DNA of 64,000 nucleotides from Octopus vulgaris (lineage: Eukaryota). A model generated the notes under the pieces. The model was not told the origin of the DNA. It was given only the letters and a program-made list of their open reading frames with translations, and searched no databases. How positions within the stretch are numbered: position 1 is the stretch's first letter; the number at the start of each line of letters is the position of its first letter. The translations under genes were made by a program, and so were the position numbers. The DNA lies in NCBI GenBank assembly GCA_951406725.2, contig OX597819.1, positions 104,718,001-104,782,000 of the forward strand, written 5' to 3'. This document shows positions 3,119 to 45,400 of this stretch, piece by piece.

Positions 3119-3196
3119 ATGTATGTATATATATATATGCATATATATATATGTATATATATATATGTATATATATGTGCATATATATGTATATAT

Positions 3197-4321: not shown

Positions 4322-5109
4322 ATGCGTACGTGTGAACGTGCGCGTGTGTATATGCACATGTTTGTGTATAGAGGTATGTCTGTATCAATCTACATACATA
4401 CATTGCTCGCCCGCCATTTCTGACAGCAGGAATTTGGTAATCTCTGTTTTCCCTTACCAGTAGAAGGTAAATTTGACTAAGCATAGGTTTGTTCACGAAT
4501 GATTTTTATTGATCACTCGCATGACGGAGAAATACGGATTTACATTTCGATTTACATTTCTGTGTAATTCTCGTGTGATGCACATATTTTCATGTATCTT
4601 GACACTGCACAATGTGCCTTCTGCAGTAACACAAAGATTTATATGTTGAAATATGCTTGACTCATATTCGAATCCCTAAGAAAGCCGTTTACTGTATTTT
4701 GTAGTGGAGACAACTTCCAGCTCCAGTCAAACAGTGAAAATAGACCAAAATCAGCTCTCAGTGTCACCTACCCAGACTTTGAGATGCAAGTATTTCGGAG
4801 TGATTATTTCGTCTTCAATCACAGAAATCAGAGAGTTGATCTTAGAAACTGTCTCTCTTATGACAGAGTTGATCTGAGAGACTGTCTCTTTTATATTCTC
4901 ATCATCGTACAATGGACTAGTAGTGCTAATCGGTGGATCACTGCAAACTAATTATGTGTTGGCAATGTTAAGCAGGTATGTATATAAATACATGGCTTTT
5001 ATCAGTTCAAATATACTTGAGTCATATTCCAAACAGTTAGAAAGCCATTCAGTGTGTTTTGACGCGGAGAAAGTTTCTCGCTTCTACACAAATGGTGTAA
5101 ATATGCCAA

Positions 5110-5463
5110 AATAAACTTCAAGACTTTCCCTTCGCATCCTATATTCAACTGCCAATTTTTGCACCGTTGATAAAGCTGGAGTGCCATTCCCTAACGTAGC
5201 AAGTATAGCAAAATGAATGTCCTTGAATGCTAAATCCTTTTGCTGCAGGTATTTGATAACACCACAATACCAAATTTTGTTCATTTTCAAAAGAAGTTGC
5301 TACTGATCACATTTGAAGTCTTCCTTGAAAAGTAAGTTATTGATATATCTGGAAAGAAACAAAGCACTTATTAATAAGAATCGTTGAAATTAATACACGT
5401 AAGATTTCACAGATCCTGCGTCACTCCTTCATAGTTAGCTTATGAACATTTCAGACCACCTTC
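5110..5463 (-). mobile_element. mariner 5' fragment (N-terminal HTH of transposase)
   Basis: ORF 5084-5290 VIKYLQQKDLAFKDIH...PALSTVQK...RRESLE matches the mariner first HTH. A terminus-like GAAGGTGGTCTGAAATGTTC lies near 5445-5464. Confidence 0.7.
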
Positions 5464-5832
5464 TTAATTTCTTTTCGAATAGAGTTCACCAACGCAAAGT
5501 TACATCCAATAAGATTTAATAAATAAAGATATTCTTACGGGGGCAGAGTTTCTCAGTTAGATTTTTAAAGAATTCTGTACACACTGTGTTTTTTTCTTGT
5601 TCAGCACATTTTTTTAACACAACAATGCGTCTGGAAGAAGAAAATAAATCGCAAATTTTTATTTCAAAATTTAAAAAAGATGATAATCTTGAGCTTTGTT
5701 TTTAATCAAATTTTAAAATACCCGCAGAAATAAAACGCATTGGCAAAATATTTTATGTTATTTAAAAGAGAATTTGTTGCTCTTCAAGAGCAGGTGTGTT
5801 TTCATGTTTTAATTTTATTAAACACACACACG

Positions 5833-5886
<54 letters not shown>

Positions 5887-5916
5887 TACACACATACACA
5901 CACACACACACACATA

Positions 5917-7359
5917 TCTTTATATATATAAAACTGAGAATGTGTGTCTGTCTGTCTGTGTGTTTCCCTAAAACTTGAGAACTACACAACCAATTTCACC
6001 AAATTTTACACATGCCTTACTTATGGTCCGGGGAGTGTCATCGGCAAAAAATAATTTTTAACTTTTTGCCTAGGGCGAGCCCACAGCAATATCATATCTT
6101 CTCCACTACGATTGCCTAAAACTTAAGAATTACACAACCAATTTCATTCAAATTTTATACATGCCTTACTTAGGGTCCATGTAGTTTCATGGGCAAAAAA
6201 ATGTTAAACTTCTGGCCTAGAGCGAGCCCATAGCAATTTCATATCTTCTCCACTATTTCAGTATTACGTGTTAAAAGTGAAACAAAAACGTTTCTCTATT
6301 TTATGTCAGATACTTTCACTTTAGCAATAAAAATAATAATAACAATTGAATTATATGTAGTAAGTAATAATTAAAATCAACTAAAGTATAATATAATCGT
6401 AATATAACAAAAGTAAAAATAGCAATTGGTATAAAATTGCATCAATGATTTGAACTTGATTAAGTGGTTTCACATGAATGGGAATAAATAAAAAATAAAA
6501 TTTAAGTGCAGAAATGGAATAGTCCAGATGGATAATAAAAAATTAAATTAAAGAAAAGACTATTATCTATAAAGTATACAATGTAGAGAAAAAAGAAGAT
6601 TTGAACACATGGAGGAAAGCACCTTCGAAAAGTGTCTTAGTGCGACTTTGAAAGACATCTAATCAGAGGCGGTAAATTCGCCACAATAGAAACAAGGTTC
6701 GAGTCAACGGAGCGTGCAGGGGAGTACTCGACTCGAACTTGCAAAGTGGAAATATTTTATTTTTACTTTTATATCTGGGACGTAGGACGTCCCGGATAAA
6801 AATTTTAAATGCCCCTTCCCCACCCCCACCCCAGAAGTAGAGGTAGGCTGGATTGTAGCCACACTTCTATACAAAAGCTCTATCTGCGACGATTTCATCT
6901 CAATCGAAGGAGAGGGGCTTTCTCCGTCCGGGTTGCGGATCCGTGGAATAAGCTGCCGGACGAGATAGTGAAGATGCCGACGACCGCTTGGTTCAAAGTC
7001 TCCCTTGACCATAAGTGGCCTGAACTCTTTACATGAACACCACCCTGTACATAACTCCATGTCCCCCTACATGGCCTTGCTTTTTGAGCCAAAAGATTAA
7101 CTAACTAACTAACTAACTAACTAAACAAGAGGGAGGACAAGATACAATTGATCGAAATTACAAGAGACGGGCTAACAATTCCAGTCTGTTATATATTTTG
7201 AGTATTGTTATCACTAGCGATATCAAAATATGACTTTGTATTTTGTATTTTATGTGTAGATGTATATATATAGATGTACATGTAATATGTACGCATATAT
7301 ATACACATATATACATGCAGTAGCACTATGACCCGGCAACGAGGGGACTTTAATACTAG
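5917..7359 (+). mobile_element. non-autonomous Helitron-like element with internal ~148-bp tandem duplication
   Basis: Starts A|TCTTTATATATATAAAA with (GTCT)n, and ends with a GC-rich decayed hairpin (ACCCGGCAACG) then CTAG|T. Direct repeats lie at ~5968-6108 and ~6115-6257. Confidence 0.6.
6870..7124 (+). mobile_element. CR1/L2 LINE 3' end with (TAAC)n tail
   Basis: FSVRVADPWNKLP...FKVSLD C-terminal motif, stop at 7036, then a (TAAC)n tail at ~7098-7124. Confidence 0.8.
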
Positions 7360-13396: not shown

Positions 13397-13568
<172 letters not shown>

Positions 13569-13656
13569 GGGTAATAAGAATTATAGAAATTATTATTACC
13601 AGTGGCCTAGCACAAAAAAAAAATATTCAGTAGACTATATATTATTCACATAAAAA

Positions 13657-13936
13657 TATCGTGTACATTAGTACACGTTAAGAGGCTTCCAAATATGAAA
13701 GCCTTCAGTAGAAAACTCAAACCACTAATTATGGATAAATTCTCGAAAGGATTGAAAATTAAAAACGTTTACCATCAACCATGGTAAACGTTTTTAATTT
13801 TCGACCATCGTAAACGTTTTTAATTTTCAATCCTTTCGAGAATTTATCCATAATTAGTGGTTTGAGTTTTCTACTGCTCTTTCTAGCACAAGGCTTTTCT
13901 ATTTGGAAGTCTCTTAATGTGTTCTAATGTACACGA

Positions 13937-13938
<2 letters not shown>
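13657..13938. repeat. fold-back element related to the HHR-bearing unit at 41.7 kb
   Basis: Near-perfect inverted arms (13657-13775 vs ~13810-13938). The arm GTAAACGTTTTT...TTAGTGGTTTG...ACTGCTCTTTCTAG matches 41732-41805. Confidence 0.85.
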
Positions 13939-13984
<46 letters not shown>

Positions 13985-34730: not shown

Positions 34731-34855
<125 letters not shown>

Positions 34856-35312: not shown

Positions 35313-35375
35313 AGATATATATGTATATATATAAAACTTATATATATCTATTTAAATAAATTTATATATATATAA

Positions 35376-35420
<45 letters not shown>

Positions 35421-39944: not shown

Positions 39945-40496
39945 TGTGTCTGTGTGTGGGTGTGTGCCTATACATGCGTACATGTACGTATGTATGTGTG
40001 TGTGTTTGCATGTGTATGTATATATGTGTGCGTATGTATGTATGTATGTATGTATGTATGTATGTATGTATGTGCATCTGTATGTACGTATCCTGCATAT
40101 TTATGTGCTTTCCTGTCCGTGTTTGTGTATTTTCTACGTATGTGTGTGTGTGAGCTTGTGTTTATTTATGTATGCACCTCTGTCTCCCTGTGTGTGCATA
40201 TCTGTGTGTGTGTTATGTAACTATGTACCATGTTTGTATGTATGGATGTGCATCTTTATATGTGTGGATCCGTGTCTCCATATGTGTCTGTTCTTTTAAC
40301 CTATGTACCTATCCGTCTGTATGTTGATCTGTTTACTTACATATCTAAATGCTTACATACAGAAATAAAAAAATGAAAAAATAAAAAATAAGAAATATAA
40401 AAATAAAAAAATATAAAAATATAACAAAAGCAAAACATAATAATGATTTTAAAAAGGGCATACACACACACACTCACACCCACATACATATATACA

Positions 40497-41270
40497 TTTA
40501 TCAACCACATCTCCAGCTATACCTACACCAATGGCTACACCTTGAACCTGCATGTAAAGTTTTTTATTAAACTTTACTATGTGGTTTTTCAAGGTGGTTT
40601 TTACGCTGGCCCCTATTGCATATGCAATCATTTCCCTCACTTGATTGTTGTTCTCAGGGTTTTGGGTGGGTGCGGTCCAGCCACTCCAGCGCTCTGTGGT
40701 GCTTTTCTTCACCGCTGAAGTGATCGTGGGTGGTCTACCTCTCTGTGACCTGGTGGGGAAGAATTTACTAAGGTCAATGTCATCTAAATAGCTATTGTCA
40801 TAGCATAGTCTGAGGAGGAGGCCCAGTTCCCTGGTGTTGACCTTACGGAATTCCACTTCACTCTCACAGATTGCTTGAATGCATTTCTCCACAGCAAAAT
40901 CTATGTCTATAGATGGGTAGAGTGAAATTACATCCATACTACCCACTATACAACCTGTGAGGTCGTTGGTGTGGTTGCAAGTACTGATTTTACTGAGGAG
41001 ATCTTCTGTACTCATACACACATCCGGAGACAAATCTATGAGAGGTCGCAATACTTGTGAGAGGAAGTAGGACAGTCTATAGTTGCTGGAGATGTTTGCT
41101 CCGCAAACTGGTCTGGTTGGGGGCCCTGCGACAGGATTTATGTAGGGTTTGTGGTCTTTGCGTAACCCGTATAGTGTAGGAACATCATTGTTGGATGTCT
41201 GGAAATTGTGTGCTGTCCTTTTTGTAGGTTGGAGTATGTTGTACCACATTCCCATGTGTGCATTGAGGTG
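40497..41270 (-). mobile_element. Penelope-like element reverse transcriptase fragment
   Basis: LYGLRKDHK, PTRPVCG, SMDVISLYPSI (motif A) and YMQVQGVAIG (motif B'). Truncated by a (CA)n tract before the YxDD motif. Confidence 0.8.
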
Positions 41271-41276
41271 TATATA

Positions 41277-41947
41277 CATGCCTCGAGTATATATGCTATA
41301 ACTTTTCAAAATCCACCACACTCGCGCGGTTTTCTCAGCAGTAAATATAAACTGCCCATTTAATTTCAAAATTAGCCAAAAAATCATTAATTAATAAATT
41401 TTAGGGTAACAAAAAATTCTAGAAAAATTCTCTAGGGTAGCAAAAACTTCTAGAAAAAATTTTCTAGAATTTTTTGCGACCCTAAAATGTATTAATGATT
41501 TTTTCGCTAATTTTGAAATTAAATCGGCAGTTTATATTTACTACTGAGAAAGCCGCGCGAGTGTGGTGGATTTTGAAAAGTTATAGCATATAGACTCGAA
41601 GCATGGTTATTATCGCCTGCTTCGTGACTATATGGTAGTCCTTGGCTTTCTGCTGAAGAGGCACGCCAGTCATAAATAAATTTATTTTATTTACAAAAAA
41701 GATTGCCGAAACTATGCATAGTCCAGAAAGGGTAAACGTTTTTATTTCTCTTTCCATTTCAGAATTACAATTATTAGTGGTTTGGAGTTTAACTGCTCTT
41801 TCTAGTGAGTCGGATGTCCTATTATGGCCATCCCTTATGCGTTTGAATGTATATTACATAGTCTATTGACAATTTTTTCTTTCTCACTTGACCGCTGGTA
41901 GCGGAGAATTTTTCTAGAAGTTTTTGGTACCCTAAAATTTATTGATA
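41277..41947 (+). mobile_element. ~450-bp pLTR/retrozyme-like unit with terminal direct repeat and inverted partial copy
   Basis: TTTTCTAGAA.TTTTTG..ACCCTAAAAT recurs at ~41460 and ~41909. 41277-41430 is the inverse of ~41460-41605. The unit contains an HHR. Confidence 0.75.
41646..41730 (+). ncRNA. type I hammerhead ribozyme (complete consensus)
   Basis: CUUUCUG-CUGAAGA-GGCA...UGCC-GAAAC-UAUGCAUA-GUC-CAGAAAG: 7-bp stem I, G-C closed stem II, palindromic ACUAUGCAUAGU stem III, GUC cleavage site after 41723. Confidence 0.9.
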
Positions 41948-41978
41948 TATATATACATATATATATAAAGATATATAA

Positions 41979-42032
<54 letters not shown>

Positions 42033-42149
42033 GTGTATATATATATATATATATATTCATTGAACAGCAGATACAAAATAAATTAAAGCAAATCGAAGTT
42101 GCTTTTAATTTAATCGATAAACTGAGATGTGTTTTCTCTTCGAACACAT

Positions 42150-42395
42150 CACCGGCGCAACAACAACAACTTCAGCAGCATCAACAACAACAACCTCAGC
42201 GGCAACAACAACAACAGCAGCAACAACAACAGAATGAACCACTCCTTGATTCGTCTACAACGGCCGATTTGTTAAACGAAACGATTGACCCCTCCCCAGT
42301 CACCAGGGTCTCACAGCAGGAAGCACCATCCCTTCCTTTCACTTCCCCAGTAGCTCAATCATCATCACTGTCAACATCATCGCTTCTGCCTACTA

Positions 42396-42427
<32 letters not shown>

Positions 42428-45400
42428 ACCTCAAGGAATCTACCTCCAACTACTTGTTCAAGAACTCTACCTCCCACAGGTCACAAAGTTCGCCAAAACC
42501 TCAGCAAACTATCATCTACACCTCTCACAACTCACACAAGCACCCACACACCCACTCGAAACCCCGTCATTTGCCGATATTCTCTCCGCTATAGATTATG
42601 CACTGATAGAGACTGCAAGTTCACCCATTTACCTGGGACAGAAAGCTCTATCCCCACAAACTACAACAGCCACCACCATAATACATACTCTATTACAACA
42701 CCACCACAACCACCAATATCTCAAACAAGGAATCCCCAAATCTGCCGCTATTCCCAGCGAGAAAGATTGTGTATGCACAGGGATTGTCCCTTTATCCATC
42801 TCCCGGGGACTCGTCGGACAAATGATAATAAAAATAAAAATAACGGCAAAAAAACATATAACTCATATAGAAATAACCACTCATATAAAAATAACCACAA
42901 CAAAAGTCACCTACAGTTCCCTAGACAGGAAACTTTTTCCTCTTTTGTAGCTATAAGGAATCTAGCAAAAGAACTGGAAAAAAAACATCCGAGCTATCAC
43001 CTACCACCATCCACCACTATCACCCCACTGCACATGCCATTAAAAAGCAAACATAAACAAAACGCCAAAACTATTAAAACCATCCACTCTCACCTCAACA
43101 TTTTTGCTTAATGCCCAAGACATCAGTCCTTCCACCAATACTCAAAAATGGAAGTTAAAATTCCTGGAGGACTGGGTCGATGCCTATCCAAACCACATCC
43201 CTTTCTTCGTCCTCACTGAAACCCATCATAGTAACCTCCACTTGGAAGCCGGGGTGAAAGTTAAAAATTTCAAAGCCATTAATGCTGATCGTGCTGGCAG
43301 AAGAAAGGATGGGACTGCCGTTTATGTTCTTGATTCATTCCCAACAGAGACTTGTGACCCCCTTCGGTCAGACACTGACCATGGGTTTTCACCTACAGAG
43401 TTACCCTCTGAGGCACAAGTCTGGACAAGGTTTTTTTTTATGGAAGACCAGCAGTCGCCCATGCATACCGGCCTCCCCTCTCCACGTCACCGATGTTGTC
43501 TAAGGGAAAGGCAAGGGTCGATACAGCTTGGCACCTGTGACGTCGCAACTCATTTCTACAGCTGAGTGAACTGGAGCAACGTGAAATAAAGTGTCTTGCT
43601 CAAGAACACAACACGCAGCCCGGTCCAACAGAGACTATGGACATATTTTCTAATGGATACTGCGAAACAGTCGCTGTATTCAGTCAAACCAACAACTTAA
43701 TAGTAGTTGGGCTCTACAGACTACTCCAAACGCCCCTACCATGTTTCAAGGAATGCCTCAACAACATAAAGTGTTTCCTCCAGCAGTGTCAACCTGACAA
43801 CATCTTAATGGTGAGAGACTTCAACCTTCCCGGGGTTGACTGGTCTACAAACAGTGTGCCGCCAGGTTCTTCTCTTTGAACTCCTGACAGGGAGGCAGTG
43901 GAATCGCTTCTTGACTTCATGGATGATTTCTTCCTGTCCCAACTTGTGCTCGAACCAACAAGATCTCACAAAAAAGTCGTAGACTTAATTTTCAGCAATC
44001 ATACTGACACTATCCACAATATTGCAGTGGAGAAAGCTCTACTCTCTGATCATGACATGGTTCTCTGTGATCTGAGATTTCACCGGCCAAAATACAAAAC
44101 AAACGTCATCCCTCTTGTACATCCATTTGACACTATGGATTTCCACAACGCAAACTGGGAAGCGATCAGTAATGATCTTGAACAAGTCGATTGGTCCTTC
44201 ACGCACACATACACACCCACTAACATCAAAAAGTCCTGGCAGTCATTTGTAGACACCATTACCAACATATGTGCAAAGCACACCCCATTAAGATCTGCAA
44301 ACAAATCTAAGTGCAGAATCCCTAGAAATAGAATAACTCTCATCAGGAAAATTAAAAGAATTAACAAAAAAATCAACAAGCTAAAATACTGGCAACAGCA
44401 ACACACCAACCTGACTGCCATCACGTCACTAGAGATTGAAAAACATAACCTCCAAAACAACATGATGTCTATCATCAATAGTCAGAGAAGAGCTGAAGAG
44501 TCCTGGGCCATTGAGAAGATCAAACTCAATTCCAAAGTGTTCTTTTCATTTGCAAAAAAAAAACACGAAGTCACTGGCTCTACTGTTGGCCCTCTGATTG
44601 ATGAAAATGGTACTCTTCAAGACAATGCCAAAACCATGGGAGAGATGCTGCAGAAACAATATTGTTCTGTTTTCAGCAATCCTTATATTACTGATCTGGG
44701 TTGCATCAGTGATGTTACTCCCCTATACACTTTATCGGACATAACCTTTGGCGCAATAAAAGAAATGAAGCATAATTTAGCAGTAGGTCCCGATAGGTTC
44801 CCTGCTTGTGTCTTGAAGATGTATCAACACCAACTTGCACCCCCCTCTAGCCAATCTGTGGCGGAACTCACTGGATGCTGGATATATAGCAGAAAACCTA
44901 TACCAGTCTGTTGTCCCAGTTTTCAAAAAAGGAAACAAATCGCTTGCCGTGAATTACCGTCCAATCTCACTCACCTCTCATATCATTAAGGTATTTGAGA
45001 GAGTGCTGAGATCGCAAATGACTCACTCCCTTGAGAGTCATAATATGCTGAACTCCAACCAGCATGGATTCCGTAATGGAAGGGATTGCCTGACGCAGCT
45101 ACTGCATCATTTTGATGATATTTTGAGAGCCTTAGGAGAGGGTTCCAACACTGATGTTATCTACCTTGATTTCATCAAGGCCTTTGACAGGGTTGATCAT
45201 AAGAACCTTTTGAGAAAGCTGTCCAATATTGGTGTCACTGGAAAGCTGCTGCAGTGGATCAAGTGCTTCCTGTCGAACAGAACCCAACATGTTGTAGTCG
45301 AAGGAGTCAAATCCAGCCCAGCCAAAGTCAGTAGTGGTGTCCCACAAGGCACTGTGTTGGGCCCACTTCTCTTCATCATCTACATTAATGACATTACTGA

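Follow-up and report, generated by a model that had tools for sequence, protein, structure and literature searches.

Retrozyme-type repeats are already known in animals, including mussel. Metazoan non-LTR retrozymes are described as short, ORF-less repeats of low GC content with a type I hammerhead; solo monomers are common among them, and an origin of the class from Penelope terminal repeats has been proposed (PMC7229834; bioRxiv 10.64898/2026.07.22.740005). EN+ Penelope insertions, in turn, are reported to combine a direct pLTR with an inverted one placed head to head, a palindrome at the 5' ends and a tail of ~31 bp, and for Adineta vaga mobilisation in trans via the terminal repeats is described (PMC3846280). 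Penelope insertions also show a bias towards microsatellites together with an inverted copy (PMC8557442). In vitro work on the anole Penelope describes the use of uncut RNA, internal starts of reverse transcription, and cutting and extension of both strands; the hammerhead of this element requires protein and is dispensable for insertion in vitro (PMC11167929).

Here we describe a locus of Octopus vulgaris at which a retrozyme-sized unit and a Penelope-type inverted insertion structure are united. It lies in a stretch of 64 kb that was analysed as a whole and is called the window below. In the explanation that we prefer, with a probability of roughly 0.55, a 450-nt ORF-less hammerhead repeat, likely derived from a Penelope-like terminal repeat, entered a TA microsatellite and probably owed its copying to Penelope enzymes supplied in trans. 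The unit itself is, judging by its sequence, most likely a retrozyme-type offshoot of such a terminal repeat. The locus is an ordinary member of the known class and adds one host to it. Its combination of unit and insertion structure fits the view of animal retrozymes as non-autonomous Penelope derivatives that is put forward in bioRxiv 10.64898/2026.07.22.740005. Among the papers that literature searches listed, no title or abstract opening tells of an octopus retrozyme or Penelope-hammerhead family.

Architecture of the insertion

Table 1. Features of the insertion, its flanks and the hammerhead motif (positions within the window).
Feature	Position	Strand	Remarks
Penelope-like RT ORF, internal fragment	40505–41268	-	starts before motif A, reaches motif B; ends GIAGDV
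Spacer	41269–41276		8 nt, TA-like, TGTATATA; RT fragment to its left, inverted arm to its right
Inverted arm	41277–41432	-	copy of 41457–41606 plus 3 nt (GAG) from the unit's end
Extra inverted copy of terminal repeat	41431–41460	-	~30 nt; palindromic middle of the hairpin; putative PLE tail
Unit	41457–41906	+	one unit, 450 nt, ORF-less, 35% GC
Repeat A	41457–41496	+	first 40 nt of the unit; holds palindrome TTCTAGAA
Hammerhead motif, type I	41646–41730	+	core intact; predicted cleavage after C41723
Stem I	41646–41652 / 41724–41730	+	CUUUCUG / CAGAAAG; 7/7 Watson-Crick; open-ended
Core strand	41653–41659	+	CUGAAGA (consensus CUGAnGA)
Stem II	41660–41663 / 41704–41707	+	GGCA / UGCC; caps a 40-nt loop; G10.1-C11.1 pair is G41660-C41707
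Core GAAA	41708–41711	+	
Stem III	41711–41722	+	ACUAUGCAUAGU, perfect 12-nt palindrome
GUC site	41721–41723	+	C17 is C41723
Repeat A'	41907–41946	+	beginning of a second unit; right end of the insertion
(TA)n tract	41947–42056		likely insertion target

The insertion amounts to 1.09 units, read through the intact cut site (Table 1), and extends for 223 nt from this site to its right end. Repeats A and A' lie at a period of 450 and are identical at 34 of 40 positions, differing at 6; the recurrence of the first ~40 bp that had been noticed in the initial annotation is hereby confirmed. The same annotation placed an inverted partial copy to the left of the unit. This copy is indeed present, since 41277–41429 agrees with 41457–41606 at 139 of 149 aligned bases, and it ends 40 nt before the hammerhead in unit coordinates. 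What had been overlooked is the extra inverted copy next to it, which is identical to 41909–41934 at 25 of 26 positions. Together, arm and extra copy reach the hairpin centre at ~41460 and form a head-to-head arm of 41277–41460, within a hairpin of 330 bp across 41277–41606. A single substitution (one site only) is common to A' and the extra inverted copy and absent from A and the inverted arm. A small hairpin, CGAAGCA / TGCTTCG, is located at 41598–41626; the inverted arm stops on top of its 5' strand, which may mark an RT start site.

Both ends of the element are flanked by TA repeats, in which no target-site duplication is readable. Using 40 proteins, no tblastn match at E ≤ 1 was obtained in the 450-nt unit, and an N-terminal profile built from seven full-length relatives of the RT found no match there either. 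The 64-kb window holds no second full unit, only a related copy at 13567–13946, and the locus holds no second hammerhead. Matches at 34732, 35316–35418 and 49875 were considered as unit copies and rejected as TA tracts.

Head-to-head inverted arm, TA flanks and direct repeat support the Penelope-type architecture proposed earlier for this locus. The head-to-head inverted copy measures 184 nt, compared with 181 bp in Pen2a_Av of Adineta vaga (PMC3846280). Further features shared with EN+ Penelope pLTRs are the palindrome at the junction, the extra piece of ~30 nt and the microsatellite target (PMC3846280, PMC4209133); TA repeats adjoin both ends here, and the terminal sequence of the related 13567 copy is (AAT)n. 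For the tail of 30–40 bp there are two candidates, the ~30-nt extra copy at the hairpin centre and the 40-nt repeat at the right end. In contrast to EN+ Penelope elements, no RT-endonuclease ORF lies between the direct repeats, the RT fragment being outside the unit and on the other strand; the right repeat comprises 40 nt only; and the outer ends of the insertion are offset by 110 nt in unit coordinates, which exceeds a 30–40-bp tail.

The likeness to metazoan non-LTR retrozymes (PMC7229834; bioRxiv 10.64898/2026.07.22.740005) extends to the GC content, for which <45–50% is the criterion, and to the size, which lies within the 51–972 bp of Li et al. and slightly above the 350–390 bp of mussel. 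With 1.09 units and one hammerhead, however, the locus falls outside the active-copy definition of Li et al. (bioRxiv 10.64898/2026.07.22.740005). Where tandem units with at least two hammerheads would be expected, the locus has one hammerhead, and the join of unit end to unit start occurs in at least four contigs of three sequencing runs (see below). The inverted arm is a further difference; PMC7229834 nowhere uses the word "inverted".

The hammerhead motif and its predicted activity

All core parts and three stems of a full-consensus hammerhead with a GUC site, as first annotated for this position, were found (Table 1). Stems I, II and III comprise 7, 4 and 4–6 bp, and the 40-nt loop 2 contains an AU-rich hairpin. 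In a descriptor scan of both strands of the 64 kb this motif was the sole match, and an equally good match occurred once in 100 shuffled windows. The motif exceeds chance expectation. The call is based on a custom descriptor rather than a library model; Rfam gave no match at gathering score in the 64-kb window, for which the 40-nt loop 2 is a likely cause. Like the pLTR hammerheads in PMC4209133, the motif is of type I, on the sense strand, and has a palindromic stem III. It differs from canonical metazoan retrozyme motifs, described with a palindromic loop of 2–4 nt, by its 40-nt loop 2 and its 12-nt palindrome. At position 41672 the bulk of the contig depth from public runs has G, which would extend the hairpin in loop 2 by one pair. 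In some copies 41728 is followed by AGGAG, which might lengthen stem I; the consensus of one group of loose contig ends merely hints at a corresponding insertion on the 5' side.

The palindrome ACUAUGCAUAGU is calculated to form an intermolecular 12-bp duplex at −15.9 kcal/mol, compared with +0.4 kcal/mol for the monomer hairpin. Folding thus predicts a hammerhead built to act as a dimer via stem III, as has been reported for hammerheads of metazoans and of Penelope elements (PMC4209133). In the minimal RNA 41644–41731 the active fold costs 1.8 kcal/mol, rising to 5–11 kcal/mol once the flanks extend to 41620 or 41760. For the 41630–41760 RNA it lies 9.9 kcal/mol above the ensemble, with a stem I probability of 0.0, and in the whole linear unit it costs 11 kcal/mol. 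The model consequently predicts that the hammerhead is blocked in its sequence context by about 10 kcal/mol.

The locus had been rated the best candidate for an active ribozyme. We do not uphold this rating in view of the one hammerhead at the locus, its dimer-type stem III, the penalty of 9.9 kcal/mol and the stem I probability of 0.0. The intact core is weak evidence of activity in an aged copy: by our estimate, ~45 constrained bases would remain unchanged in about 1 of 6 cases at ~4% divergence. Published cases vary. Lone minimal Penelope hammerhead motifs gave no cleavage (PMC4209133), one of nine Xenopus hammerhead dimers cleaved (bioRxiv 10.64898/2026.07.22.740005), and a mussel retrozyme cleaved at about 0.1 per minute (PMC7229834).

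Related copies in public sequencing runs

Assembled contigs of four public runs were aligned to 40400–42100 at ≥80% likeness. Two runs (X1 and X3) are guessed to be DNA; the other two (X14 and X19) are guessed to be RNA and were counted solely as presence of related sequence. X1 gave 1784 contigs and X3 2304, most of them below 95%. Because just 176 and 232 of these, respectively, reach ≥99%, the family of the 450-nt unit is multi-copy and varied, as far as assembled contigs reflect it. At least eight positions of the unit deviate from the bulk of the contig depth, and hence the copy studied here is an aged one.

The joint 41423–41913, on opposite strands, was present in at least one, two and one contigs of X1, X3 and X14; it represents the unit's end continuing into repeat A, with the positions in register. 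Among the contigs listed, G at 41600 occurs in 19 and 22, with up to 52 letters on each side (41548–41652), and contigs with a variant at 41357 span 41288–41426, which is up to 69 letters on each side. Loose ends at 41618, in 8 and 13 of the listed contigs, look like the 5' flank of the hammerhead. Every join of the 450-nt cycle thus appears in other copies, as short pieces only. Neither a tandem array nor a complete second unit was seen among the listed contigs, which are short pieces. Two contigs that span the hammerhead exit the window at 41569 and 41564 and continue upstream with 268 and 203 other letters.

The reverse transcriptase fragment and autonomous relatives

The RT fragment is an open frame of 247 codons without a stop. 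It is truncated at both ends, stops before YxDD, and a microsatellite lies past its 3' end. Its best relative is an Octopus vulgaris protein with 66% identity over 256 aa (41267–40500). A protein search restricted to longer proteins yielded 41 RT homologues. In 20 of them a YxGE[ST] motif of GIY-YIG type lies C-terminal of the catalytic YxDD, in none N-terminal, and a CX2-5CxxC linker is present in 22. Going by these motifs, the fragment is a Penelope-like RT of the C-terminal-endonuclease type, the endonuclease being seen in full-length relatives only. The C-terminal place of the endonuclease motif, together with the CX2-5CxxC linker, spoke against assigning the fragment to Naiad, Chlamys or Hydra.

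Motifs A and B are typically separated by about 60–75 aa. Their spacing is 133 aa in the window fragment, and 131–140 aa in the fragment together with 24 of the 41 relatives. Set against this general baseline, the spacing looks long and would correspond to an insertion at the position of the telomerase IFD. The predicted structure of the Octopus relative (mean pLDDT 74) finds its best structural matches in telomerase RTs, at ranks 1, 2 and 5. Neptune/Nematis-type Penelope ORFs (PMC8557442) resemble the relatives in the C-terminal GIY-YIG-type motif and the CX2-5CxxC linker; they appear to differ in the A–B spacing, canonical C-terminal elements being described as free of an insertion there. 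A further difference is that the DKG motif reads DKSG.

Pfam assigned no family to the fragment, and eight relatives gave sub-threshold matches only. A sequence search of solved structures returned two weak matches to bacterial RT, and in a protein atlas the RT falls among unnamed animal RT/GIY-YIG clusters. Two Octopus vulgaris gene models (P0019 and P0021) join a fragment of the RT family to unrelated host sequence, one such fused model being named dynein regulatory complex subunit 6-like; these are likely annotation artefacts or cases of exonisation.

A PLE RT fragment joined to the inverted copy had been annotated initially. The RT is present on the opposite strand as claimed, but its membership in the unit is not supported: three of the listed contigs leave the window at 41266–41268 and continue with 55, 73 and 31 other letters, and none of the pieces listed bridges the junction between RT fragment and inverted arm. 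The junction looks specific to this locus. It is likely that the RT fragment is a separate remnant or a template-switch passenger, rather than a demonstrated parent of the unit.

For a view of autonomous elements, 33 metagenome loci encoding relatives of the RT were searched for hammerheads. Two of the 33 carry a full three-stem hammerhead; each has a palindromic stem III and follows the ORF match on the sense strand, at distances of 390 and 680 nt. In either contig the first 123–130 nt recur at the end, as expected of tandem units. A looser bare core pattern was found in 9 of the 16 loci with at least 350 nt of 3' flank, four of the nine being one family. Since hammerheads were found behind the ORF in these loci, a sense-strand hammerhead ~200 nt before the unit end is normal for the clade of this RT. 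In loci L003 and L022 the order is ORF, 3' UTR, hammerhead and, within ~200 nt, the ORF start again. A parent element with the terminal repeat of the unit was not found, and none of 31 pattern matches in viral contigs was related. One locus (L001) has direct terminal repeats of ~936 bp (1–936 and 5118–6053), which contain tandem arrays of 21/105 bp; its hammerhead core is at 4973. Another (L006) has an inverted terminal copy (1–61 and 3126–3186) and hammerhead cores on both strands.

Insertion mechanism and alternative explanations

We propose the following course for a copying in trans. Head-to-tail copies of the unit would be transcribed into a multimeric RNA, and the (TA)n tract would be cut by the GIY-YIG endonuclease of a Penelope element. 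Reverse transcription would then begin inside the RNA near repeat A' and pass the uncut hammerhead and one full unit. A shorter second copy, primed at the opposite end of the break, would be joined head to head, so that the products meet at their 5' ends and the second becomes the inverted arm. Cutting by the hammerhead would occur chiefly in dimers paired through the 12-bp palindrome and would trim multimers to monomers. For this lone, aged copy, weak or no activity is predicted.

A circular or multimeric RNA template had been suggested for this locus. The intact hammerhead, read through within more than one unit, indicates a template longer than the 450-nt unit; a circle as such does not follow, because a linear multimer serves equally well and one substitution pairs A' with the extra copy and A with the arm, a pattern not expected from a single circle. 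In the published retrozyme cycle, cleavage by the hammerhead is followed by ligation of the monomer, here of 450 nt, into a circle, which the RT would in this case copy 1.1 times. Such a course would agree with the 40 nt of terminal redundancy and with the GC content, and mussel retrozymes of 350–390 bp are reported to yield circular RNAs (PMC7229834). A model circle folds at −114.3 kcal/mol compared with −93.6 ± 5.6 kcal/mol for 40 shuffles (z −3.7), and the linear stretch 41497–41946 has a z of −3.08. Strong folding is not specific, however: among 14 random 450-nt segments of the window one reached z −3.7 and four reached −2.0 or lower. Moreover, A and A' disagree at 6 of their 40 positions, and the substitution that unites A' and the extra copy is lacking in A and the arm. 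The active fold is predicted to be allowed in most metazoan retrozyme circles, whereas its cost here is that of the linear unit given above. Contigs are by nature unable to reveal circles. Overall, the substitution pattern slightly favours a template that held two unlike copies of A. A circle could have served as template but is not required, as a linear multimer gives identical DNA, and we regard the complete circle route as unlikely.

About equally doubtful is that the locus represents a rare gutted autonomous Penelope, with a 5' terminal repeat, an ORF deleted near 41565–41610 and a hammerhead-bearing 3' end, and that no self-standing family exists. The order of parts in L003 and L022 would be the expected starting point of such a deletion product. 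The two contigs diverging at 41564–41569 would be consistent with a longer parent that had its deletion breakpoint near 41565, and the inverted arm passes from the equivalent of 41606 into the RT fragment, like a differently deleted copy. Yet both arms share their sequence across 41565–41606, other copies cover 41548–41652 and 41288–41426, the unit is without an ORF remnant, and a TA-like spacer of 8 nt separates arm and RT fragment.

A MITE or foldback DNA transposon with a chance hammerhead-like string is highly improbable and was rejected on its non-inverted ends: the 330-bp hairpin would suit it, but this hairpin is internal and one-sided, the fixed terminal inverted repeats of a MITE are absent from the locus (the initial 30 nt do not resemble the reverse-complemented final 30 nt), and the hammerhead is beyond chance and is borne at the same place by Penelope relatives.

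Start points of copies and neighbouring sequence

For the family as a whole, a further reading is that the hammerhead is active in living cells and that its cleaved RNA serves as a main template for insertion. Most copies would then begin exactly at 41724, and rarer ones like the present copy would stem from uncut multimers or circles. We consider this only a tentative and rather unlikely extension. Summed contig depth climbs 6.1-, 6.3-, 2.5- and 2.5-fold in the four runs from bin 41654–41710 to bin 41711–41767; contig depth is not equivalent to copy number, and relatives having just the downstream part may produce the same step. Two X1 contigs have a TG microsatellite immediately before CAGAAAG. 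The related copy at 13567–13946 (~79%) is a head-to-head pair, both arms of which begin within about 10 nt after the equivalent of the cut site; no hammerhead was seen in this copy itself. Its left arm runs up to TACCCT, followed by (AAT)n; the extra copy stops at this same point, at 41433. If 5' ends pile up at the cut site, they would offer a genome-wide test of the action of Penelope hammerheads in transposition, and, if the reading is true, the genome would hold written evidence on the role of these hammerheads.

Directly after the TA tract, 42060–44000 on the plus strand is occupied by what we take, from its motifs, to be a decayed LINE. Its Gln/Thr-rich ORF1 has two Cys/His repeats (CRYS...LC...DC.F.HLPG); behind it lies an APE-type endonuclease frame that is broken by shifts and stops.
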